A program made the translations under genes and the position numbers. This document shows positions 4,521-36,785 of a DNA stretch of 53,444 bases, in pieces; position 1 is the first letter of the stretch, and the number at the start of each line of letters is the position of its first letter. The stretch comes from Chloroflexota bacterium. GTDB lineage: Bacteria; Chloroflexota; Anaerolineae; UBA1429. The stretch lies in contig DAIRUQ010000003.1 in NCBI GenBank assembly GCA_036803245.1, positions 1-53,444 of the forward strand. The letters run 5' to 3'. The notes under the pieces are model-generated. The model did no database searches. It was given only the letters and a program-made list of their open reading frames with translations, and was not told where the DNA came from.

Positions 4521-4893
4521 GGGAGAGAGGGCCGGGCGATCGCGTGGCGCCATTGGCGCCCCGAGGAAAGTCCGAACTCCATAGAGCACGGCGCTGGGTA
4601 ACGCCCAGGCGGAGCGATCCGGCGGAAAAGTGCAACAGAAAGCAGGTCGCCGGCCAAGCCGGCAAGAGTGAAACGGTGGCGTAAGAGGCCACCAGCGGGC
4701 CAGGTGACTGGCTCGGCTAGGCAAACCCCGCCGGGAGCAAGACCAAGCAAGAGGCCGGTCCCTTCGGGGGCCACGGGCTGCTCGCCTGAGCCTCGGGTAG
4801 GTCGCTGGAGGCGTCGAGCAATCGGCGTCCTAGATAGATGATCGCCGCCCCGGGCTCCGGGGCACAGAATTCGGCTTATAGGCCCTCTCTCCC
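4521..4893 (+). ncRNA. rnpB: RNase P RNA, bacterial type A
   Basis: P1 pairing GGGAGAGAGGGCC (4521-) with GGCCCTCTCTCCC (-4893). Conserved blocks read directly: GAGGAAAGTCCG, GGGTAACGCCCAGG, CAACAGAAAGC, GTGAAACGGTGGCGTAAGAG, GGCAAACCCC, CTAGATAGATGATCGCC, ACAGAATTCGGCTTATA. Confidence 0.92.
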
Positions 4894-4960
4894 TTTTGGG
4901 CGGCTGCCGATGTGAACACTGTGGCGGGTTGGATGCCCTCTGTCTGCCTGCTCCAGAGGT

Positions 4961-22281: not shown

Positions 22282-22824
22282 ATGGATATGGCTGTTCTAG
22301 ATATTGTCACGTCCGAGAATCCAGCTCTCCGAGAAAAGTCCAAGCGAGTGACCAGCTTTGGGTCGGGGTTGGAGAGCCTGGTGACCAGCATGTTCGAGAC
22401 GCTGCACTCTGCCAACGGGCTGGGACTAGCGGCTCCCCAGGTGGGGGTGCAGCAGCGCGTTTTCATCGTCGAGCTTCCCGAGGAGCTGGACGAAGAAGGC
22501 CAAGTGGAGCTTCCGGCCGAGAGCTATGTGCTCGTCAATCCCGAGATCGTCCGACGGCGCGGTGAACAAGAGATGGTCGAGGGATGCTTGTCGGTGCCCG
22601 GCTATCGTGGCATGGTCAAGCGCAACACCTTTGTGGTGATCAAGGGGCAAGACCTGACGGGCCGCAACGTGCGTTACCGCGCCGAGGGGCTCTTGGCTCA
22701 GGCCTTTCAGCACGAGCTGGACCATCTCGATGGAATCCTCTACATCGATCGCGTCGAGAGCGCTGACAAGCTATGGCAGATCCCTGTGGGGATGGAAGAG
22801 ATCGACGATGAGGACGAGGTCTAG
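22282..22824 (+). CDS. def: peptide deformylase
   Basis: GLGLAAPQVG, EGCLSVPG and HELDHLDG motifs. Confidence 0.95.
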   Translation: MDMAVLDIVTSENPALREKSKRVTSFGSGLESLVTSMFETLHSANGLGLAAPQVGVQQRVFIVELPEELDEEGQVELPAESYVLVNPEIVRRRGEQEMVEGCLSVPGYRGMVKRNTFVVIKGQDLTGRNVRYRAEGLLAQAFQHELDHLDGILYIDRVESADKLWQIPVGMEEIDDEDEV

Positions 22825-23585
22825 TCAGCGTCGCCGATGGCTGGCAACGGGTCCTGGCGAGGAGCGCTAGCCAGGTTCAGGTGCTCGAGCAACATGGCGG
22901 CCCGCGGCAAGATCAGGTCTGCCCCCGCCTTTTCCAGTTCGCCCCTCACGCCAAACCCCGAGAGCACAGCGACTGCATAGGCGCCGGCGCGCTTGGCCGC
23001 GCGCACGTCGGCGGTGGTGTCGCCAACCATCGCGCAATCGCTGGGAGATACCCCTAACCGCTTGGCTGCCTTGAGCACTGGCTCGGGGTGTGGCTTCATC
23101 CGGATGACGTCCTGTCGAGTGATCACGATCGGGAACAGCGTCTGCAGTCCAGCCTGGCGCACAAAGGCCTCGGCCTCGGGTCGCGCACGCGTGGTAACGA
23201 CGGCTAACAGGTAGCGTCCTCGTAAAGCCTCCAGCAGCTCGATCGAGCCGGCCACCAGCTCAGACTCGCCCCTGGTGGCCAACCCCTTGGCGGCGCGCAC
23301 CCGGTCTGCCAACCCGAAAAAGCTGCTACCGATTCCCACATGCTCGAGCGCCGACATGACATAGTTGGCCGGTGATTCGATGCCCATCACCAAATGCCGC
23401 GCAAGCGCCTGGGCGTCTACACGCGGGATCAGACGCTCCAGCCAGCGTAGCTTTTGTGCCAGCGTCTCGGCCCAGCGGTTGTCCGTCTCGATGAGCGTGC
23501 CATCGAGGTCGAACAAGATCGCTTTGGGAGCGAGACCGGGCAACGTTGGGTCATGCGTGCCCTGCTGGCTCACTGAGCCTCTCAC
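22821..23585 (-). CDS. HAD-superfamily phosphatase (last gene of the his operon)
   Basis: AILFDLDGTLIETD (motif I), VVTTR, GDTTADVRAAKRAG. Its GTG start abuts the hisE stop with no gap. Confidence 0.85.
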   Translation of the reverse strand: MRGSVSQQGTHDPTLPGLAPKAILFDLDGTLIETDNRWAETLAQKLRWLERLIPRVDAQALARHLVMGIESPANYVMSALEHVGIGSSFFGLADRVRAAKGLATRGESELVAGSIELLEALRGRYLLAVVTTRARPEAEAFVRQAGLQTLFPIVITRQDVIRMKPHPEPVLKAAKRLGVSPSDCAMVGDTTADVRAAKRAGAYAVAVLSGFGVRGELEKAGADLILPRAAMLLEHLNLASAPRQDPLPAIGDAD

Positions 23586-23870
23586 CTAGCCGAACCGCCG
23601 CGCCAACTCGGCCAGCACGTCATCCCATGCGAGCCCCTTGGACGCCAGCATCACCAGTAGATGATAGATCAGGTCCGCCGTCTCGTAGACGAGGCGCTCG
23701 TCGCTCTCGATGGCGCCAGCCACCACCACCTCGGCAGCTTCCTCCCCCACCTTCTTCAGGATCTTTTGCGGGCCGGCCTCGAGCAGCGCGCAGGTATACG
23801 AGCCCTCGCGGGGAGCTTGCTTTCGATTCTCGATCACGCTACACAGTGCGGCGATGACATCTTGGGTCAT
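23586..23870 (-). CDS. hisE: phosphoribosyl-ATP pyrophosphohydrolase
   Basis: [28 protein letters not shown]...[13 protein letters not shown]. Confidence 0.93.
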
Positions 23871-24232
23871 GATCTCTCCTGCGCTCCGCCCAGGCGGCGG
23901 TAGAAACAGCTAACAGCTCCGGTGTGGCAGGCCGGGCCCGCCGGCGATACCAACATCAGCAGCGTATCCGCATCGCAATCGACCAGGATCTCATGGATGC
24001 GTTGGATGTTGCCAGAGGTCGCTCCCTTGTGCCAGAGGCATTGGCGGCTTCGGCTCCAGAACCAGGTCTCGCTGGTCTCCAGGCACCGTTCCAGCGAGAC
24101 GCGGTTTACCCAGGCGACCATCAGCACCTGCCGTGTGTTGGCATCCTGAACCACGGCCGGCAAGAGCCCATCGGCGCTCCATCGCAGGGCTTCGAGGTCG
24201 ACCGAACCCAACGATCCCACGTCTTTGGCCAT
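23867..24232 (-). CDS. hisI: phosphoribosyl-AMP cyclohydrolase
   Basis: [22 protein letters not shown]...[19 protein letters not shown]...DCDADTLL. Confidence 0.93.
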
Positions 24233-24239
24233 GTCGTCC

Positions 24240-24998
24240 TTACGTCCTCACCGGCACGCTGCGCTCAGCCAGGTATTCCTTGACGTCGCTGACACGGTAC
24301 TCTTGGTAGTGAAACAGCGATGCCGCCAGGGCCGCGCTGGCCTGGCCATCGGTTAGCACCTGGTAAAAATGGTCCAGCGCTCCCGCGCCGCCCGAGGCGA
24401 TGACCGGGATGGACACGGCCTCGGCCACTTGGCGAGTCAGCTCGAGGTCATAGCCATCCTTGGTGCCGTCGCGATCCATGCTGGTGAGCAGAATCTCGCC
24501 CGCACCACGGGCCTCGACCTCCTGTGCCCAGGCCACGGCCTCCTTGCCGGTGGGAATCCGTCCGCCGCTGATAAACACCTCAAAGCGTCCGTCGTCACTG
24601 CGCCTGGCGTCGATGGCGACCACGATGCACTGGCTGCCGAAACGCTTGGCGCCCTCGTCGATCAGCTCTGGCGTGCGGATGGCCGCGCTGTTGATAGAGG
24701 TCTTGTCGGCGCCGGCCAGCAGAACGGCGCGCAGGTCATCCACGGTGCGCAACCCACCACCCACCGTAAACGGGATGTTGACGACATCGGCCACGCGCCG
24801 CACCATGTCGGAGACAATGTCGCGGCTCTCGTGTGACGCGGTGATGTCGAGGAACACCAGCTCGTCGGCTCGCTCGTCGGAATAGATCCTGGCCTGTTCC
24901 ACCGGATCGCCGGCGTCGCGCAGGTTCACAAAGTTGATGCCCTTGACGACGCGGCCGTTCATGACGTCCAGGCAGGGAATGATCCGTTTGGCTAGCAT
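24240..24998 (-). CDS. hisF: imidazole glycerol phosphate synthase, cyclase subunit
   Basis: [33 protein letters not shown]... Confidence 0.96.
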
Positions 24999-24999
24999 A

Positions 25000-25746
25000 T
25001 CAACCTCCTCGCTCGATGCGGTTGACCTCGGCCAACGCCTCGGTCAGGGTAAAGCGCTTTTCGTAGAGGGCCATGCCGACGATGATGCCCTCGATGCCGC
25101 TAGACGCTTGCTGGGCCAGCGCGCGAATGTCCTCCAGCGAGCTTACGCCGCCAGACGCGATGACCGCCAGGCCGGATTGCTGGGCCAGGCGACGGGTGGC
25201 TTCTAGATTGGGGCCGGTCAAGGTGCCGTCGCGCTGGATGTCGGTATAGACGATCCGCTCCACGCCGAGCTGGGCCATCTGCTGGGCGAGATCCAGGGCA
25301 AGGACGTCACTGGTCTCTAGCCAGCCGTGGGTGGCCACGCGCCCCTCGCGAGCGTCAATGCCGACGGCAATGCGTGCCGGGCCAAAGCGAGCCAGCGCCT
25401 CCTCCACCACGTCTGGTTGGCGCACGGCGACCGTTCCCAGCACGACGCGCGCCACGCCGGCATCCAGCAGGCGGGCGGCATCATCGACGCTGCGCAAGCC
25501 TCCGCCGAACTGCACCGGCACCCTGACGCGGGCAAGAATGGCCGAGACGGCGGCCATGTTGGCCGCTGCCTGATCGCCCAGAGCCCCGTCCAAATTCACC
25601 AGATGGAGCCATTCGGCGCCTTGCTCCTCCCAGGTTTGGGCCATGGCAGCTGGATCGGCGGCATAGACGCGTTCCTGGCTGGCTTGGCCCTGCACCAGGC
25701 GCACACAGCGCCCGTTACGAAGATCGATGGCCGGATAGACGATCAT
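25000..25746 (-). CDS. hisA: ProFAR isomerase
   Basis: [20 protein letters not shown]... from the ATG at 25744-25746. The ORF-track entry (to 25977) is an over-extension into hisH. ATGA overlap with the hisH stop. Confidence 0.93.
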
Positions 25747-26366
25747 GGAGCCTCCGTGGCGATGCCGGCCATCCGCGCAAAGTTGCGCAGGATCCGTTCG
25801 CCGATGTCCTGGCTCTTTTCGGGATGGAATTGGATGGCCGCGATGTTGCCGCTGACGACGGCTGACACAAAGTCGCGGCCATAGTCGGTGCGCGCGGCAA
25901 TGACGCCGGCATCGGCGGCATCGCAGAAATAAGAGTGCACAAAGTAGGCATAGCTGCCATCGGGTACGTCGTGCCACAGCGGCGTGGACAGCGTCTGACG
26001 GATCTGGTTCCAGCCCATGTGGGGGATAGTCACCCCGGTGTCAAAGCGACGTACACGACCAGGCAGGACGCCGAGCCCGCGGTGCTCTCCCATCTCCTCG
26101 CCCACCTCAAACAGCACCTGCATGCCCACGCAGATTCCCAAGAAGGGCACCCCGTCGCGGAGGGCGGCCACGAGCGGCGCGTCTAGCCTGTGCGCGCGCA
26201 GGTTGGCCATGGCGTCGCCAAAGCTGCCCACGCCGGGCAAAACCAGGGAGCTAGCACGTGCGATCTGGGCCGGATCTGCCGTGACGGTCGCGGGGACGCC
26301 CAGGCGGCGAAACGCCATGGCGACGTTGCGCAGATTGCCCGCACCATAGTCGATGATGGCCAGCAT
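25743..26366 (-). CDS. hisH: imidazole glycerol phosphate synthase, glutaminase subunit
   Basis: MLAIIDYGAGNLRNV...LGICVGMQVLF... from the ATG at 26364-26366. The ORF-track start at 26567 is over-extended into hisB. Confidence 0.93.
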   Translation of the reverse strand: MLAIIDYGAGNLRNVAMAFRRLGVPATVTADPAQIARASSLVLPGVGSFGDAMANLRAHRLDAPLVAALRDGVPFLGICVGMQVLFEVGEEMGEHRGLGVLPGRVRRFDTGVTIPHMGWNQIRQTLSTPLWHDVPDGSYAYFVHSYFCDAADAGVIAARTDYGRDFVSAVVSGNIAAIQFHPEKSQDIGERILRNFARMAGIATEAP

Positions 26367-26367
26367 G

Positions 26368-26961
26368 CTAGAGGGTCCCCTTGGTTGAGGCGACACCGAT
26401 GCGGCGTTCGTCTCGAGCGACAGCCTGGCCCAGCGCCCGCCCCAGCGCCTTGAAGATCGCTTCGATGATGTGATGACTGTTGGCGCCATCGAGCAGGCGG
26501 ACGTGTAGGGTGATGCCGGCATTGTGCGCCAGGGCCCGCAGGAACTCGGGCACCAGCTCGGTGTCAAAGGTGCCTACTTGGGCCGTCGGGATGTCCACGT
26601 GGTATACCAACAAGCCTCTCCCGGACAAGTCTAGGCTCACCAGGGCCAGGGCTTCGTCCATGGGCAAGGTGTGGCTGCCGTACCGGACGATGCCGACCTT
26701 GTCGCCGAGCGCCCGGGCCAGCGCCTGCCCCATGGCGATGCCAACGTCCTCTACCGAGTGGTGGGCGTCAACCTCCAGGTCTCCCTGGCAGGCGATCTCC
26801 AGGTCGATTAGGCTGTGGGCCGCCACATGACTGAGCATGTGGTCGAGAAAGGCGACACCGGTAGCGATCTGCCATCGCCCGCTGCCATCGAGGTCAAGCT
26901 GCACCCGAACACTGGTCTCGCGGGTCTCTCGTTCGACCAGGGCCGATCGTTGCTCCGCCAT
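26368..26961 (-). CDS. hisB: imidazoleglycerol-phosphate dehydratase (monofunctional, no phosphatase domain)
   Basis: 197 aa: RETRETSVRVQLDLDG...HHSVEDVGIAMGQAL...SHHIIEAIFKALGRAL. Confidence 0.95.
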   Translation of the reverse strand: MAEQRSALVERETRETSVRVQLDLDGSGRWQIATGVAFLDHMLSHVAAHSLIDLEIACQGDLEVDAHHSVEDVGIAMGQALARALGDKVGIVRYGSHTLPMDEALALVSLDLSGRGLLVYHVDIPTAQVGTFDTELVPEFLRALAHNAGITLHVRLLDGANSHHIIEAIFKALGRALGQAVARDERRIGVASTKGTL

Positions 26962-26969
26962 GCTGCCTC

Positions 26970-28082
26970 CTAGAGAGACTCAAGGGCCGCCAACACCGCA
27001 TCATTCTGGGCTGGCGTTCCCACGGTGATCCGCACGTGGCCTTGGAGCCGTCCTTCCCCAAAATAGCGCAGCAGAATGCCGTGCGCCTCCATATGCGCTC
27101 GGAACCGATCCGCGTCGACACCCTGCAACCGGCAAAGGTGATAGTTGGCTTGGCTGGGATAGGCGACCAGATGGGCCGAGGCGGCCAGCGCCTTGCCCAT
27201 GCGCTCGCGCTCGGCGACGATGGCCGCCACGCGATCCAGCGCGGTCTGCGCGTTCAGCAGCGTAGCCAACGCTGCCGCCTGGGCGGGGCCGTTCACGTTA
27301 TAGGGCGATTTGAGCTTGAGCAGTAGCTCGGCCAGGCGAGGCGGACAGATGCCATAGCCGATGCGCATGCCCGCCAGCCCGGCCCACTTGCTAAAAGTGC
27401 GGAGTACCACCAGGTTGTCGTGCTGGGCGACTTGAGCGGCGCGCGAAGGCCCGCCAAACTCGACATAAGCCTCATCGAGCACCACCAGCAGGGGCAGCGC
27501 CAGCAGCCGGGCGAGCTGATCGTCGGGCAGGGGGCCGCCGTCGGGGTTGTTGGGTGCGGCCAGGAACAGGATCCGCGGTCTGCCGTCGGCTTCGCATACA
27601 GCGGTGATGGCGTCCACATCCACGCCGAATTCGGCGTTCCGCGGGATCTCGCGCACGGGTATGCCGTCGGTCGCGCCGTAGAAGGTGTACATGCCAAAGG
27701 TGGGGGGGCAGGAGAGGATCTCGCACACGCCCCTTCCTTGGGCATCGGGGCGGATCAGGCGCAGAATGAGCTCGATCAGCTCATCCGACCCGTTCCCGAC
27801 CACGATCTGCGAGCTATCCACGCCGCAGAAATCCCCGAGGCCCTGGCGTAGCCGCCGCGCCAGGGGATCTGGATAGCGGTTCAGATCGTTGTACTGCCTG
27901 ACGGCGTCCTGCGCCGCCGGCGTTGGCCCGTATGGGTTCTCGTTTGCGTCCAGCTTGATGAGGCGATCCGCTGGCATGCGCAGACGCTCAGCAGTGGCCT
28001 CCAGCGGTTCGGGCGCGTATTCCTTGACGGCCCCAAGGCGCTCGTTCACGAGGGACCAGAGGGCGGCGTTCGGTGACTCCAT
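26970..28082 (-). CDS. hisC: histidinol-phosphate aminotransferase
   Basis: From the ATG at 28080-28082 (MESPNAALW...). IKLDANENPYGP and the TFSKWAGLAGMRIGY PLP-lysine motif are present. The ORF-track start at 28232 overlaps hisD and is rejected. Confidence 0.92.
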   Translation of the reverse strand: MESPNAALWSLVNERLGAVKEYAPEPLEATAERLRMPADRLIKLDANENPYGPTPAAQDAVRQYNDLNRYPDPLARRLRQGLGDFCGVDSSQIVVGNGSDELIELILRLIRPDAQGRGVCEILSCPPTFGMYTFYGATDGIPVREIPRNAEFGVDVDAITAVCEADGRPRILFLAAPNNPDGGPLPDDQLARLLALPLLVVLDEAYVEFGGPSRAAQVAQHDNLVVLRTFSKWAGLAGMRIGYGICPPRLAELLLKLKSPYNVNGPAQAAALATLLNAQTALDRVAAIVAERERMGKALAASAHLVAYPSQANYHLCRLQGVDADRFRAHMEAHGILLRYFGEGRLQGHVRITVGTPAQNDAVLAALESL

Positions 28083-28087
28083 GGCTG

Positions 28088-29434
28088 CTATGCTCCCCTC
28101 AGCCGGCGGCGCATGGCGGCGGCATGGGCCGTCAGCCCCTCGGCCTCGGCCACAACCAGCGCTGGTTCCGATAGCACGCGCGCTCGCTCGGCGCTCAGGG
28201 CAAAGACGCTGGTGATCTTGACGAAATCCCACACTTGGAGGGGCGAGCTGAACCGAGCCGTGCGGCCGGTAGGCATCACATGGGTCGGGCCGGCGGCATA
28301 GTCACCCAGCGCCTCGGAGACATGCTCGCCCACAAAGATGCCGCCAGCATGCCGCACCTTGCCCACCCAGCTCCAGGGGTCGCGCATGAGCAAGCAGAGG
28401 TGCTCGGGCGCAAAGAGGTTGGCCAAGTCCATCGCCTCGTCCAGCGAATCGACCAGCGCGATGGCGCCGCGCGTTGCCAACGACTCGGCGGTGATGTCCC
28501 GGCGCGCAAGCTGCTCCTGCTGGGCCGCCAGCTCGGTCTGAACCGCGTCGACCAGTTCGGGGCTGGTGGTGATCAGCATGGCCGTGGCCATGGGGTCATG
28601 CTCAGCCTGGGCCAACATGTCGGCTGCCACCATGCCCGCGTCGGCGCTGTCATCGGCGACCAAGAGCGTCTCTGTGGGGCCTGGGAGCTGGTCGATGCCC
28701 ACCACGCCGTACACCCGCCGCTTGGCCAGCACGACAAAGATATTGCCGGGCCCCAGTATCTTGTCGACGGGGCGGATGGACTCGGTGCCATACGCTAGGG
28801 CGCCCACGGCGATGGCGCCGCCCAGCGGTACGATCTCTGTCACGCCGGCCACGTGGGCGGCGGCCAAGATGGTATCGTTGAGCTGGCCGTCGCGCGGTGG
28901 CGTGGCCACGACGATCTCGTCTACGCCAGCTACCTGAGCGGGGACGGCTGCCATCAGTAACGAAGAGGGATAGGGCGCACGACCATTGGGGGCATAGATG
29001 GCCACTCGCTCCATGGGCCGGACCATTTGCCCTAGCGCGCCGCCATCGTCGTCCCAATCTAGCCATGAGGTAACCGGTTGCTTCTCGTGAAAGGCACGGA
29101 TGCTGTCAGCGCAGCGCTGGAGGGCGTCGCGCAGCGAGGTTGGCGTGCGCTCCCAGGCCTCGGCGATGCGCTCCTGGGGCACCGAGAGGTCAGTCAGCTC
29201 GGCCCCCTCAATCAACGTGGCATAGCGGCGGACGGCATCGTCGCCCTCGGACCGAATGTCCCGCAGGATGCGCTCAACTACCTGGTCGGGTGTGAGCGGC
29301 TCGCCAAATAGCCGCTGGATGCCGGCTTGGAGCCCGGGGGAGGCCTCGTAGGCGTCCAGCGGGGGGCGCGCTTCCAGGAAAGATCGCGTGGCATCGAACC
29401 CTCGTAGCAGGCGAATCGGGTTGGCGTTGCTCAT
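28088..29434 (-). CDS. hisD: histidinol dehydrogenase
   Basis: 448 aa. ...AQAEHDPMA... plus overall collinearity with HisD. Confidence 0.94.
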   Translation of the reverse strand: MSNANPIRLLRGFDATRSFLEARPPLDAYEASPGLQAGIQRLFGEPLTPDQVVERILRDIRSEGDDAVRRYATLIEGAELTDLSVPQERIAEAWERTPTSLRDALQRCADSIRAFHEKQPVTSWLDWDDDGGALGQMVRPMERVAIYAPNGRAPYPSSLLMAAVPAQVAGVDEIVVATPPRDGQLNDTILAAAHVAGVTEIVPLGGAIAVGALAYGTESIRPVDKILGPGNIFVVLAKRRVYGVVGIDQLPGPTETLLVADDSADAGMVAADMLAQAEHDPMATAMLITTSPELVDAVQTELAAQQEQLARRDITAESLATRGAIALVDSLDEAMDLANLFAPEHLCLLMRDPWSWVGKVRHAGGIFVGEHVSEALGDYAAGPTHVMPTGRTARFSSPLQVWDFVKITSVFALSAERARVLSEPALVVAEAEGLTAHAAAMRRRLRGA

Positions 29435-30084
29435 GATCGCGCTCCCTTGGCAGCCACCACGCTGGATAGGTCGCTGATGAGACGCTGGATGGCCGCGAAC
29501 CGCAGCTTGTGGCTGGCGCGGTTCACGATCAGAACCGCCTCCGACCGCATGATGAGATCAAGCTCTACCAGGCCGTTCTCGCGCAGGGTGGTGCCGGTCT
29601 CGACCAGGTCCACCAGCAAGTCAGCTAGCCCCACCACAGGGGCCAGCTCTACCGATCCGCTCATGGGGATGATCTCGGCGGGAATGCCCTGTTTGAGGCA
29701 GTAGGCCTGTGCCAACCGGGGGTACTTGGACGCCACGCGCAGGCCAATGTCCAGCCTTAAGTTCCGGTCGCGAGCCTCGGGCGGGCCCGCCAGCATGAGG
29801 CGGCACTGTCCGAATCCGAGCCGCAAGGGCTCATAAACCTGCCGTCCCGACTCGCGCAGCACGTCCTCGCCGGCCACCCCCACGTCGGCGGCACCATATT
29901 CGACATAGGTGGGCACGTCTGCGGGCTTGGCCAGCACGTACCGCACGGATCCGCTGGCATCGGGAAAGACCAGTTTGCGCCCGTTCAGCGCCTCTGGCGT
30001 CGGCCCCAGGCCGATGGCCTGCAGCAGCTCTAGCGCCGCATCCTGCATTCTTCCTTTGGGCAGGGCGATGGTTAGTGGTTCCAT
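29431..30084 (-). CDS. hisG: ATP phosphoribosyltransferase, short (HisZ-dependent) form
   Basis: 217 aa: LTIALPKGRMQDAALELL... It lacks the C-terminal regulatory domain of long HisG. Confidence 0.92.
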   Translation of the reverse strand: MEPLTIALPKGRMQDAALELLQAIGLGPTPEALNGRKLVFPDASGSVRYVLAKPADVPTYVEYGAADVGVAGEDVLRESGRQVYEPLRLGFGQCRLMLAGPPEARDRNLRLDIGLRVASKYPRLAQAYCLKQGIPAEIIPMSGSVELAPVVGLADLLVDLVETGTTLRENGLVELDLIMRSEAVLIVNRASHKLRFAAIQRLISDLSSVVAAKGARS

Positions 30085-31343
30085 GCGTCTATCTCGCGCT
30101 CCATCTGATCCAAGCTCGCGGATCGGGGTTCGTCTCCCAGCAGCAGACAGGCCTGTTCCGACGCGTCGTCGCTCGGTGAGCAGTAGATGGCTCTCCGGGC
30201 GCCGGTCGCGCGACCGTAAGCCTCCAGGGCGATAGCGTCACGGTCCAGCACATCCACCTGCACCGTCAGACCGGCTTGGCGGGCGTGCTGGGCTAACCGC
30301 ATGCAGCGCGGCGAGCTGGCCGGTCCCAGCAAGAGGTCAACCCCTACCCTGGCCTGGGCCCTGGTCACCAACATGGCGCGCTCGATGCCGATGGCGAATC
30401 CGACGGCGGGCATATCGGCGCCAAAGCTGGCGACTAGCTTGTCATAACGTCCGCCGCCGCATACCGGAAAGCCCAGGCCAGAGGCATACCCATGGAAGGT
30501 GATTCCGGTATAGTAGCCCATGGTGCGGATCTCGCCCAGGTCTAGGATCACGTGCTCGCCCAGGCCGTAGTTGCGCACCTGCTCGTACACTTCTGCCAAC
30601 CGGTCGATGGCTTGGCGAGCGCTGCCGCCCAAAGCCAGGTCGCGGGCGCTGTCAAGCACCTTGGCGCCTCCACACAGTTGCGGGATGGCCTGAATGGCTC
30701 GTGAGACGGCCGGATCCATGCCGATCGCGCGGGTTGTCTCGCGGATGGCTGCATCGCTGCGTTGGTCGATGGCCTGCTCGACGCGGGAGCGGGCGTTCTC
30801 GTCGAGGGCTGTGTCGCTCAGCAGGCCCTGCAGAAAGCCCACATGGCCGAGGTTGATCTGAAAGTCCTCCAGCCCCAGTGCCAACATCGTCTCCACAGCC
30901 AGGCAGACGATCTCGGCGTCGGCGGTGCTGGTGTCGGCGCCCAGAAGCTCTACGCCCGCCTGCGAGAACTCGCGCTGGCGTCCTGCCTGGATCTCTTCGT
31001 GGCGGAACACGTTGCCCACATAGTAGAACCGTAACGGCCTGGGTTGGTCATACAGTTTGGTGGCCGCGATGCGGGCGATCGGAACAGTCATATCGGGTCG
31101 CAGAGCCAGCATCCGACCGGTGCGATCCACAAAGCGGTAGAGCTGCTGCCGTAGTTGCGGGCTGGCCTGCGTGGCGAGGGTGTCGTAGAACTCGAATGTA
31201 GGGGGGATGATCCGCGCATACCCCCACCGCGCAAAGAGCTGCTGGACGCGTTGCTCCAGCATGGTCTTGGCGGCGGCCTGCTCGTAAAAGAGATCCGCCA
31301 CGCCGACGGGCGTTTGGCGTTCGAGAGCGTCAAAAGGATCCAT
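30072..31343 (-). CDS. hisZ: ATP phosphoribosyltransferase regulatory subunit (HisRS paralog)
   Basis: HisRS-like class II core (GYARIIPPTFEFYDTL...RPDMTVPIARI...RFYYVGNVFR). It overlaps hisG by 13 nt and is the first gene of the his operon. Confidence 0.85.
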   Translation of the reverse strand: MDPFDALERQTPVGVADLFYEQAAAKTMLEQRVQQLFARWGYARIIPPTFEFYDTLATQASPQLRQQLYRFVDRTGRMLALRPDMTVPIARIAATKLYDQPRPLRFYYVGNVFRHEEIQAGRQREFSQAGVELLGADTSTADAEIVCLAVETMLALGLEDFQINLGHVGFLQGLLSDTALDENARSRVEQAIDQRSDAAIRETTRAIGMDPAVSRAIQAIPQLCGGAKVLDSARDLALGGSARQAIDRLAEVYEQVRNYGLGEHVILDLGEIRTMGYYTGITFHGYASGLGFPVCGGGRYDKLVASFGADMPAVGFAIGIERAMLVTRAQARVGVDLLLGPASSPRCMRLAQHARQAGLTVQVDVLDRDAIALEAYGRATGARRAIYCSPSDDASEQACLLLGDEPRSASLDQMEREIDAWNH

Positions 31344-31378
31344 TGGGTACCCCGATTCGTGCGCTGAACATCAGATCG

Positions 31379-31414
31379 AAACAAGAGAAAAGGCTAGCTC
31401 GTGTGAACTAGCCT
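31379..31414 (-). terminator. intrinsic terminator (attenuator) in the his leader
   Basis: Minus strand: AGGCTAGTT-cacacg-AGCTAGCCT followed by TTTTCTCTTGTTT. It ends about 35 nt upstream of the hisZ ATG. Confidence 0.65.
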
Positions 31415-31461
31415 CCCGCGGTGAGCCGAACGCGCTGCATCGGTGCAGCACGACGCCTCAC

Positions 31462-31512
31462 CTAACGATGGTGATGATGCTGGCAAAGGTTGGCGAGCGT
31501 CTCGCTTACCAT
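31462..31512 (-). CDS. his operon leader peptide MVSETLANLCQHHHHR
   Basis: 16-codon ORF on the minus strand: ATG GTA AGC GAG ACG CTC GCC AAC CTT TGC CAG CAT CAT CAC CAT CGT TAG. The four consecutive His codons lie at 31468-31479. It sits between a consensus-like promoter and the terminator. Confidence 0.6.
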   Translation of the reverse strand: MVSETLANLCQHHHHR

Positions 31513-31552
31513 AGGGTGCGGTTGACTCCAAGCGTCCTACAAAGCTGGGGCG

Positions 31553-31581
31553 ATGATAACACACGGCCAGGGAGGTGTCAA
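31553..31581 (-). promoter_or_regulatory. his operon promoter (TTGACA-17 nt-TATCAT)
   Basis: Minus strand: TTGACA (31581-31576), 17-nt spacer, TATCAT (31558-31553). Confidence 0.6.
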
Positions 31582-31625
31582 CTCGCGGCCCCGGCGAGAG
31601 GCCGGCCCGGCAGTGGGATCGGGCC

Positions 31626-31654
31626 TTGCACAAAGAGAACGAATGTGCTATTAT
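31626..31654 (+). promoter_or_regulatory. divergent plus-strand promoter (TTGCAC-17 nt-TATTAT)
   Basis: TTGCAC at 31626-31631, 17-nt spacer, TATTAT at 31649-31654. Confidence 0.45.
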
Positions 31655-31691
31655 GAGGGCGAACAAACGTTCGTAGCAGGTGAGGTAGACG

Positions 31692-31853
31692 ATGCACTGG
31701 CTAACTGGAGTGATCGGGTTCGCGGCTGGCTGCGCGGTTACCATGGTGCTGCGCCAGGCCGTCTTGGCGTCGGGTCCCGCTGGGCGGGCGGGCGCCAGTT
31801 CTCCTTGGCGGCGAGGGCGCCGGAGCAACCGCCCTCTTTGGTGGTACGACTAG
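31692..31853 (+). CDS. possible 53-aa small membrane protein (hypothetical)
   Basis: AGGTGAGG plus a 6-nt spacer before the ATG. MHWLTGVIGFAAGCAVTMVLRQAVLASGPAGRAGASSPWRRGRRSNRPLWWYD has one hydrophobic helix and an Arg-rich tail. Below the ORF-track cutoff, no homolog recognised. Confidence 0.25.
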   Translation: MHWLTGVIGFAAGCAVTMVLRQAVLASGPAGRAGASSPWRRGRRSNRPLWWYD

Positions 31854-36712: not shown

Positions 36713-36785
36713 GCGGGTGTAGCTCAGTTGGCAGAGCGTCTGCTTCCCAAGCAGAATGTCGTGGGTTCGAATCCCATCACCCGCT
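36713..36785 (+). tRNA. tRNA-Gly (anticodon CCC)
   Basis: Cloverleaf read by hand: acceptor GCGGGTG/CACCCGC, D arm GCTC-AGTTGGCA-GAGC, anticodon arm TCTGC-TTCCCAA-GCAGA, T arm GTGGG-TTCGAAT-CCCAT. No encoded CCA. Confidence 0.9.

Follow-up and report, generated by a model that had tools for sequence, protein, structure and literature searches.

A conserved His-codon leader ORF, hairpin, and terminator upstream of hisZ in Anaerolineae: a candidate ribosome-mediated attenuator of the histidine operon

Here, we show that the histidine biosynthesis operon of a bacterium belonging to the Anaerolineae (Chloroflexota) is preceded by a leader in which a short open reading frame (ORF) containing consecutive His codons, a hairpin, and an intrinsic terminator follow one another, and that this unit recurs in related loci. 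On balance, we hold it reasonably probable that this leader senses histidine through the ribosome and attenuates transcription of hisZGDCBHAFIE, with a wiring that is not classical. The analysis started from a 53,444-nt stretch of contig DAIRUQ010000003.1, hereafter referred to as the window, and from a first-pass annotation of its leader made from the letters of the sequence. All coordinates refer to the window.

Results

The his operon and its promoter

The first gene of the operon, hisZ (30072 to 31343, minus strand), encodes the 423-amino-acid regulatory subunit of ATP phosphoribosyltransferase and matched TIGR00443 with 353 bits, which is above the cut-off. It is followed by hisG, hisD, hisC, hisB, hisH, hisA, hisF, hisI, and hisE and by a gene for a HAD-family phosphatase, which together span 22821 to 30084 on the minus strand and were assigned with NCBIfam. 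The operon composition read by the first-pass annotation, hisZGDCBHAFIE, was confirmed in this way, with the terminal phosphatase gene as an addition. This gene (22821 to 23585, minus strand) is located directly after hisE, and its product showed a weak match to TIGR01656. Since hisB in the window codes for a dehydratase-only protein of 197 amino acids, the HAD protein may supply the otherwise missing histidinol-phosphate phosphatase. HisZ of the window is long (401 to 432 amino acids in relatives) and aligned to the HisRS model over residues 10 to 386; a larger part of the synthetase fold may be retained in it than in a typical HisZ.

The leader is preceded by a near-consensus promoter on the minus strand, composed of the -35 hexamer TTGACA (31576 to 31581) and the -10 hexamer TATCAT (31553 to 31558), as the first-pass annotation had described it. 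The two hexamers are separated by a 17-nt spacer and agreed with the consensus at 11/12 positions in the promoter scan. TTGACA or TTGACG was found in the same place in 16/17 relatives, and the -10 hexamer carries an upstream TG, forming an extended -10 element that is kept in the relatives as TGnTAnnAT. Transcription of the leader is predicted to start at approximately 31546. Between 30800 and 32300, the scan detected 2 promoter-like sites versus 0.2 expected from shuffled sequences, and none besides the leader promoter was situated between the leader promoter and hisZ. As the leader promoter is the only one found for the operon, his expression requires read-through of the terminator described below, and the attenuated transcript is predicted to be about 159 nt in length. 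The 208-nt leader folded better than shuffled sequences, with a z-score of -2.7.

The same promoter scan picked up a divergent promoter, TGCACA-16-TATTAT. Between the divergent promoters, and over TGCACA-16-TATTAT, lies the sequence CGAACGTTTGTTCG (31660 to 31673), a motif that is kept in two of the related leaders (L001 and L003) and that fits GAAC-N4-GTTC, which we take to be the Cheo/LexA box of Gram-positive and green non-sulfur bacteria. A second, half-matching copy of this box is located near 31636 to 31647. The small divergent gene may be SOS-regulated.

Occurrence of the leader among relatives

A HisZ scan covering one genome per species, which assigned the window to uncultured Anaerolineales/Anaerolineae (Chloroflexota), identified a His-run mini-ORF, TAGGTGAG...GCTCACCG, and a terminator upstream of hisZ in 5/5 Anaerolineae loci, and in the same scan this layout was absent from the hisZ loci of Clostridia, Gemmatimonadota, and Myxococcales. 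Metagenomes were searched with the pattern TAGGTGAG..GCTCACCG..CTAGTTC, which does not contain any His codon; all 11 matches had a His run upstream and hisZ downstream. More distant HisZ loci (46 to 55% identity), retrieved by a protein search and exact-protein look-ups, shared the architecture in 8/8 cases. Altogether, the same layout was encountered in every Anaerolineae hisZ locus retrieved. The comparative set used below comprises 17 distinct leaders, i.e., that of the window and 16 others with HisZ proteins 46 to 81% identical, and the His-run ORF is kept in all of them. Conservation of the mini-ORF upstream of hisZ in relatives, which the first-pass annotation had suggested looking for, was therefore borne out.

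For the leader, Rfam gave no match at the gathering threshold when the whole window was searched and none at E <= 10 in 31250 to 31750. Elsewhere in the window, Rfam detected a class A RNase P RNA (4524 to 4894, plus strand, 295 bits) and one tRNA (36713 to 36785, plus strand). The literature searched held no description of such a his leader in Chloroflexota or Anaerolineae. To our knowledge, the Anaerolineae have few cultured members, and we know of essentially no experimental data on gene regulation in this group.

The leader ORF

The leader ORF, MVSETLANLCQHHHHR (31462 to 31512, minus strand), consists of 16 codons and a TAG stop codon, with the ATG at 31512 to 31510 and the TAG at 31464 to 31462. 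It contains four consecutive His codons, CAT CAT CAC CAT (31468 to 31479, minus strand), identified as the control codons by sequence and alignment, and a single codon, CGT, separates the His run from the stop, just as had been noticed in the first pass. In no other mini-ORF of the window does a codon run occur together with a terminator that lies outside coding sequence, and no other codon-run leader was found in these 53 kb. An early reservation about its Shine-Dalgarno (SD) sequence proved justified: the SD-like GGAG (31526 to 31529, minus strand) is weak and lies 13 nt 5' of the leader ATG, and most relatives have stronger SD sequences (GGGAG, GAGG) at 5 to 10 nt from the leader start.

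Our own ORF calls in the 17 leaders showed that the N-terminal part of the leader peptide is free in sequence and length, giving peptides of 16 to 41 residues. In an alignment of 14 sequences, bases 1 and 2 of three aligned His codons do not vary, and base 3 is only C or T. P1, the basal helix of the hairpin described below, starts 15, 16, 17, 18, 19, or 20 nt from the first His codon, so that this spacing occurs in all three phases. The His frame has its own start and stop in every one of the 17 leaders, though it is unphased with the RNA motif. The stop is a UAG or UGA inside UAGGUGAG, a motif providing stops in two frames, or lies further into the hairpin, in either case at or after the P1 start; in L033, L035, and L036, it is situated 13 to 24 nt inside the hairpin. 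The peptide carries 3 to 4 His codons at its end; in L035, just two His codons are adjacent. In L035 and L037, the ATG follows the -10 box by only 8 to 9 nt, and the mRNAs of these two leaders are probably leaderless. The synonymous variation of the His codons, the maintenance of a start and a stop in an unphased frame, and the two leaderless-type ATGs provide comparative evidence that the leader ORF is translated.

In L004, L020, and L032, the last sense codon of the leader ORF is a proline codon (VKP-stop, NP-stop, and SP-stop, respectively), a property that is not family-wide. Proline as the last sense codon before a stop slows peptide release, and in these three leaders it would prolong the residence of the ribosome on P1. 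Two further candidate elements were rejected: a second ORF that would start from the SD-like AGGUGA and read through the terminator was not conserved when inspected by eye, nor was a second in-frame stop at the CUAG of the terminator conserved.

Hairpin A

The stop codon of the leader ORF overlaps a hairpin of 43 nt, hairpin A (31420 to 31462, minus strand; -29 kcal/mol upon folding), with the sequence GGUGAG...GCUGCA-ccga-UGCAGC...CUCACC and the basal helix P1, GGUGAG/CUCACC. The hairpin itself had been recognized in the first pass, which let it start right after the stop codon; its first G is in fact the G of TAG. Across the leaders, hairpin A measures 43 to 69 nt, and its interior diverges fully in sequence, yet it folds in every leader. 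In 14 aligned leaders, P1 is 98.8% paired, and 3 of its pairs are changed on both sides. Over all helices, two-sided changes include GGCGGG/CUCGCC in L032 and GGAUGAAUCGG/CCGGUUCAUCC in L036. In L035 and L037, which form the most distant clade (HisZ of 401 amino acids), hairpin A is 66 to 69 nt long and encloses an inner hairpin and a U-run resembling a terminator.

The alignment shows that the sequence of P1 is kept far beyond what pairing needs. With its 5' strand, P1 can pair with the His codons (UCACC/UCAUC), and local hairpins of -3 to -8 kcal/mol form in 17/17 leaders; L036, with CAU codons exclusively, carries GGAUGA/UCAUCC in place of the usual P1. The sequence conservation of P1 may simply reflect a 5' strand that must match the His codons and a 3' strand that must match the 5' strand.

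Linker, terminator, and spacings

A purine-rich linker, GCGGGA (31414 to 31419, minus strand), connects hairpin A to the terminator core. From the end of P1 to the terminator core, the linker measures 5 to 6 nt in 15/17 leaders and is missing (0 nt) from L035 and L037. The intrinsic terminator comprises the stem-loop GGCUAGUUC, loop ACAC, GAGCUAGCC (31392 to 31413, minus strand), with a core of -13.6 kcal/mol, and the U-rich tail UUUUCUCUUGUUU (31379 to 31391, minus strand), which was found in the sequence and by the terminator scan. When GGGAGG:CCUUUU is counted, as in the terminator scan, the stem has 13 pairs and extends from 31417 to 31388. In the window, the U-tract is broken after 4 U. 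The first-pass annotation had described a 9-bp stem and tail about 35 nt ahead of the hisZ ATG, and the terminator is indeed present, with a gap of 35 nt to the ATG at 31343. An intrinsic terminator in this position, after the leader ORF and ahead of the first structural gene, is a defining property that the leader shares with classical leader-peptide attenuators.

Across the aligned relatives, the terminator is 99.2% paired. Its 5' arm, CUAGUUC, is invariant in 14/17 leaders (CUAGU in L036), and its 3' arm changes; in L035 and L037, the two most distant leaders, the terminator sequence differs. Over the helices, 97% of the alignment cells are paired versus at most 56% with the partners slid, and four pairs are changed on both sides, a covariation support that rests on few independent events. 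Two spacings are held, namely, the 15 to 20 nt between the first His codon and P1 (17/17) and the 5 to 6 nt between hairpin and terminator (15/17). The others drift, from 33 to 105 nt between the leader start and the first His codon and from 9 to 92 nt between the U-run and the hisZ start.

Search for an antiterminator

In classical attenuators, a stalled ribosome favors an antiterminator, which has nucleotides in common with the terminator. Truncated-transcript folding and duplex searches did not reveal such an element in these leaders, in agreement with the earlier caveat that no convincing antiterminator could be made out by eye. In the truncated-transcript test, the RNA was cut just before the terminator 3' arm and folded, and the readout was whether the 5' arm was already paired. 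Escherichia coli hisL (100% identical in E. coli genomes, where it is annotated "His leader region") and trpL were used as positive controls. In hisL, the paired probability of the 5' arm was 0.21 in the free RNA, 0.70 to 0.81 with the ribosome at the control codons, and 0.21 with the ribosome at the stop; the corresponding values were 0.09, 0.44 to 0.81, and 0.09 for trpL and 0.52, 0.69 to 0.75, and 0.52 for the window. The free-energy contribution of the pairing in the free RNA, at the control codons, and at the stop was -0.6, -1.7 to -5.0, and -0.6 kcal/mol, respectively, in hisL, and -3.3, -3.4 to -4.4, and -4.0 kcal/mol in the window. A consistent switch across the 17 leaders was not found in either measure. 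Folding for mutually exclusive structures, as recommended in the first-pass annotation, yielded none that linked the position of the ribosome to the terminator. Equilibrium folding with masked ribosome footprints was discarded as a switch test, since the terminator always formed, likewise in the E. coli hisL and trpL controls.

Duplexes of the 5' untranslated region (UTR) with the terminator 5' arm were no better than those of dinucleotide shuffles (combined p = 0.98), and the comparison of the 5' UTR with the stretch preceding the His codons gave a combined p of 0.74. Several candidate pairings were considered and rejected. Some minimum-energy folds contained a long-range antiterminator, in which the terminator 5' arm was bound by the 5' UTR or the early part of the ORF; it was no better than in shuffles. 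The hairpin A 3' strand, which would pair with the terminator 5' arm in analogy to helix D:E of hisL, has no complementarity to it. A duplex between the 5' strand of hairpin A and the linker plus terminator 5' arm reached -14 to -15 kcal/mol in close relatives of the window only, and its formation needs the 3' strand to be displaced. Hairpin A and the terminator have no nucleotides in common. In L004 and L020, the SD region, GCAGGGAGAAC, forms a helix of 10 to 12 bp with GUUCUCCUGC, which immediately precedes the His run (-21 to -22 kcal/mol, p = 0.03 to 0.05). This helix could limit leader translation to one ribosome in these two leaders; most other leaders are without it.

Discussion

Ribosome-mediated sensing of His-tRNA is very likely the best reading of the leader. 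The translation-coupled attenuation inferred in the first-pass annotation is supported by the unit of His-run ORF, hairpin, and terminator in 17 leaders and by the synonymous variation of the His codons; the antiterminator that would make this attenuation a classical one was not found.

From the spacing of its elements, a plausible course of events can be outlined. A ribosome covers about 12 to 15 nt of mRNA downstream of its A site. Considering this footprint and the distance of 15 to 20 nt between the first His codon and P1, a ribosome stalled at the His codons would leave hairpin A folded. Counted from the P1 start, the stop codons of the 17 leaders fall between -2 and +24, and a stop codon in the A site puts P1 in the mRNA channel, so that a terminating ribosome would have to melt P1. 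As in classical attenuators, the control codons are so placed that stalled and terminating ribosomes free different strands. Because stalling keeps hairpin A folded, the folded hairpin would mark starvation, and for a biosynthetic operon this state is expected to go along with read-through. With no nucleotide common to hairpin A and the terminator, the action of the hairpin on termination would have to take a route other than helix competition.

We propose that, when histidine is scarce, the ribosome would stall and hairpin A would stay folded beside it, 0 to 6 nt from the base of the terminator. There, the folded hairpin could impede full closure of the terminator stem within the RNA exit channel or make the polymerase termination-resistant, either of which would result in read-through. 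With ample histidine, the ribosome would reach the stop and unzip P1, the 3' strand and the linker would become a flexible single strand, and the terminator would fold. The SD-like P1 5' strand, AGGUGA, might prolong the open state. Sequence and comparative evidence underlie the sensing by the ribosome and the state of the hairpin; the step from that state to termination is one that we infer without a precedent having been found: the literature searched held no case of an upstream hairpin inhibiting a terminator or of an attenuator without an antiterminator. By our estimate of the distances involved, hairpin A and the terminator need not clash sterically, and our confidence in the mechanism as a whole is modest. 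That the leader represents a distinct class of attenuators, in which the ribosome sets only whether a stand-alone hairpin, fixed 5 to 6 nt from the terminator, is folded, and the folded hairpin, alone or with the stalled ribosome, blocks termination sterically or via the polymerase, is a possibility that we put forward tentatively and regard as doubtful.

A more conventional explanation would be a classical attenuator with an antiterminator that escaped detection, for instance a helix formed over a long distance between the 5' UTR or early ORF and the terminator 5' arm, or a non-canonical or pseudoknotted one. In the long-range variant, the pairing would be set free to form once a stalled ribosome occupies the nucleotides immediately 5' of the His codons. 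Such an element would be in line with a terminator 5' arm, CUAGUUC, that is invariant in 14/17 leaders while the 3' arm changes, with the pairing of this arm to the 5' UTR in the stalled state only, as seen in the window, L001, L020, and L034, and with the strong GCAGGGAGAAC:GUUCUCCUGC helix in L004 and L020. However, no motif complementary to CUAGUUC is kept anywhere in the leaders, the complementarity of the 5' UTR to the 5' arm does not exceed that of dinucleotide shuffles (p = 0.98), nor does that of the 5' UTR to the pre-His stretch (p = 0.74), and the free-energy contribution of 5'-arm pairing is alike in the stalled and stop states of most leaders. Such a helix would also need to close around the stalled ribosome and hairpin A, and we judge this explanation unlikely.

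The terminator formed in each modelled state, and the interruption of its U-tract after 4 U suggests that it is leaky. Both observations would be accommodated by a constitutive partial terminator, with the His-run ORF and hairpin A acting post-transcriptionally, either through a stalled ribosome that shields the mRNA 5' end from decay or through an influence of hairpin opening and closing on hisZ translation, and the resemblance of the P1 3' strand, GCUCACC, to an anti-SD sequence points in the same direction. This appears decidedly unlikely, given that inspection by eye found no complementarity of the P1 3' strand to the hisZ ribosome-binding region, that the distance between terminator and hisZ is not conserved (9 to 92 nt), and that the tight spacing of 5 to 6 nt between hairpin and terminator argues for joint action of the two. 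Highly improbable, in our view, is a trans-acting factor, either a protein or tRNA-His, that binds P1 or the terminator and sets read-through, with the His codons being secondary. It would explain the unusual conservation of the terminator sequence and of a P1 sequence kept beyond pairing need while the hairpin interior diverges, and the first 4 bp of P1, GGUG/CACC, are the same as the terminal pairs of the acceptor stem in E. coli tRNA-His, G-1:C73 among them. On the other hand, this tRNA-His mimic is not followed by CCA, neither a T-box nor any other Rfam match was obtained, and none of the retrieved loci contains a tRNA-His gene with which covariation could be followed. Moreover, complementarity to the His codons, similar to helix A:B in E. 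coli, is the simpler explanation of P1 conservation, as illustrated by L036, which has CAU codons only and GGAUGA/UCAUCC instead.

The preferred reading, a histidine-sensing attenuator, would add the his operon of Anaerolineae (Chloroflexota) to the operons controlled by amino-acid-sensing leader peptides. For genome annotation, the leader adds a regulatory RNA and a peptide that have so far been left unannotated, with a conserved promoter, upstream ORF, hairpin, and terminator. A ribosome geometry of the trp/his type without an overlapping antiterminator implies either that a second coupling route exists or that folding models miss the switch. If the mechanism is ordinary, the leader would be one more member of a widespread kind.

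The first-pass annotation held that the layout mirrors enterobacterial hisL attenuation, which does not hold in this form: the competing antiterminator is absent, and RF00514, the family of hisL, gave no match at E <= 10. The two leaders are alike in having a short ORF with a His-codon run just 5' of an intrinsic terminator and a his operon, and in His codons that are complementary to the next helix strand, as in helix A:B. They differ in sequence, with no similarity detectable by covariance model either, and in the number of His codons, which is four in the window and seven in hisL. Furthermore, hisL has a chain of alternative helices (B:C, D:E) and switches in the folding test, whereas the Anaerolineae leader does neither, and the operon of the window, in a different phylum (Chloroflexota), starts with hisZ instead of hisG. 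In its geometry, the leader resembles E. coli trpL, in that the next helix strand begins some 17 to 20 nt downstream of the first control codon and has the stop at its edge. In trpL, a stalled ribosome leaves the helix involving region 2 free, and a terminating ribosome masks it. However, the 2:3 helix of trpL shares strand 3 with the 3:4 terminator, whereas hairpin A and the terminator are separate, 5 to 6 nt apart.

A T-box leader (RF00230) had no Rfam match in the region, and the part of the leader that extends from the His run to the terminator has a length of just about 90 nt. Known his regulation relies on attenuators in Proteobacteria and on T-boxes and HisR in Firmicutes and Actinobacteria (PMC9413887), consistent with the remark of the first-pass annotation that T-box or repressor control prevails outside Proteobacteria. 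His-leader attenuators have also been predicted in three lineages of Firmicutes, the Bacillus cereus group, Peptostreptococcaceae, and Erysipelotrichales (PMC9413887). Like the leader described here, these candidates occur outside Proteobacteria, have 3 to 5 consecutive His codons just 5' of hairpins and a terminator, lack a match to RF00514, and were predicted by comparative genomics alone. Compared by description only, they differ in belonging to another phylum and in the alternative antiterminator structures reported for them. Taken together, the Anaerolineae leader appears to work like the hisL and trpL attenuators, very likely so with respect to histidine sensing, but outside RF00514 and without an overlapping antiterminator.
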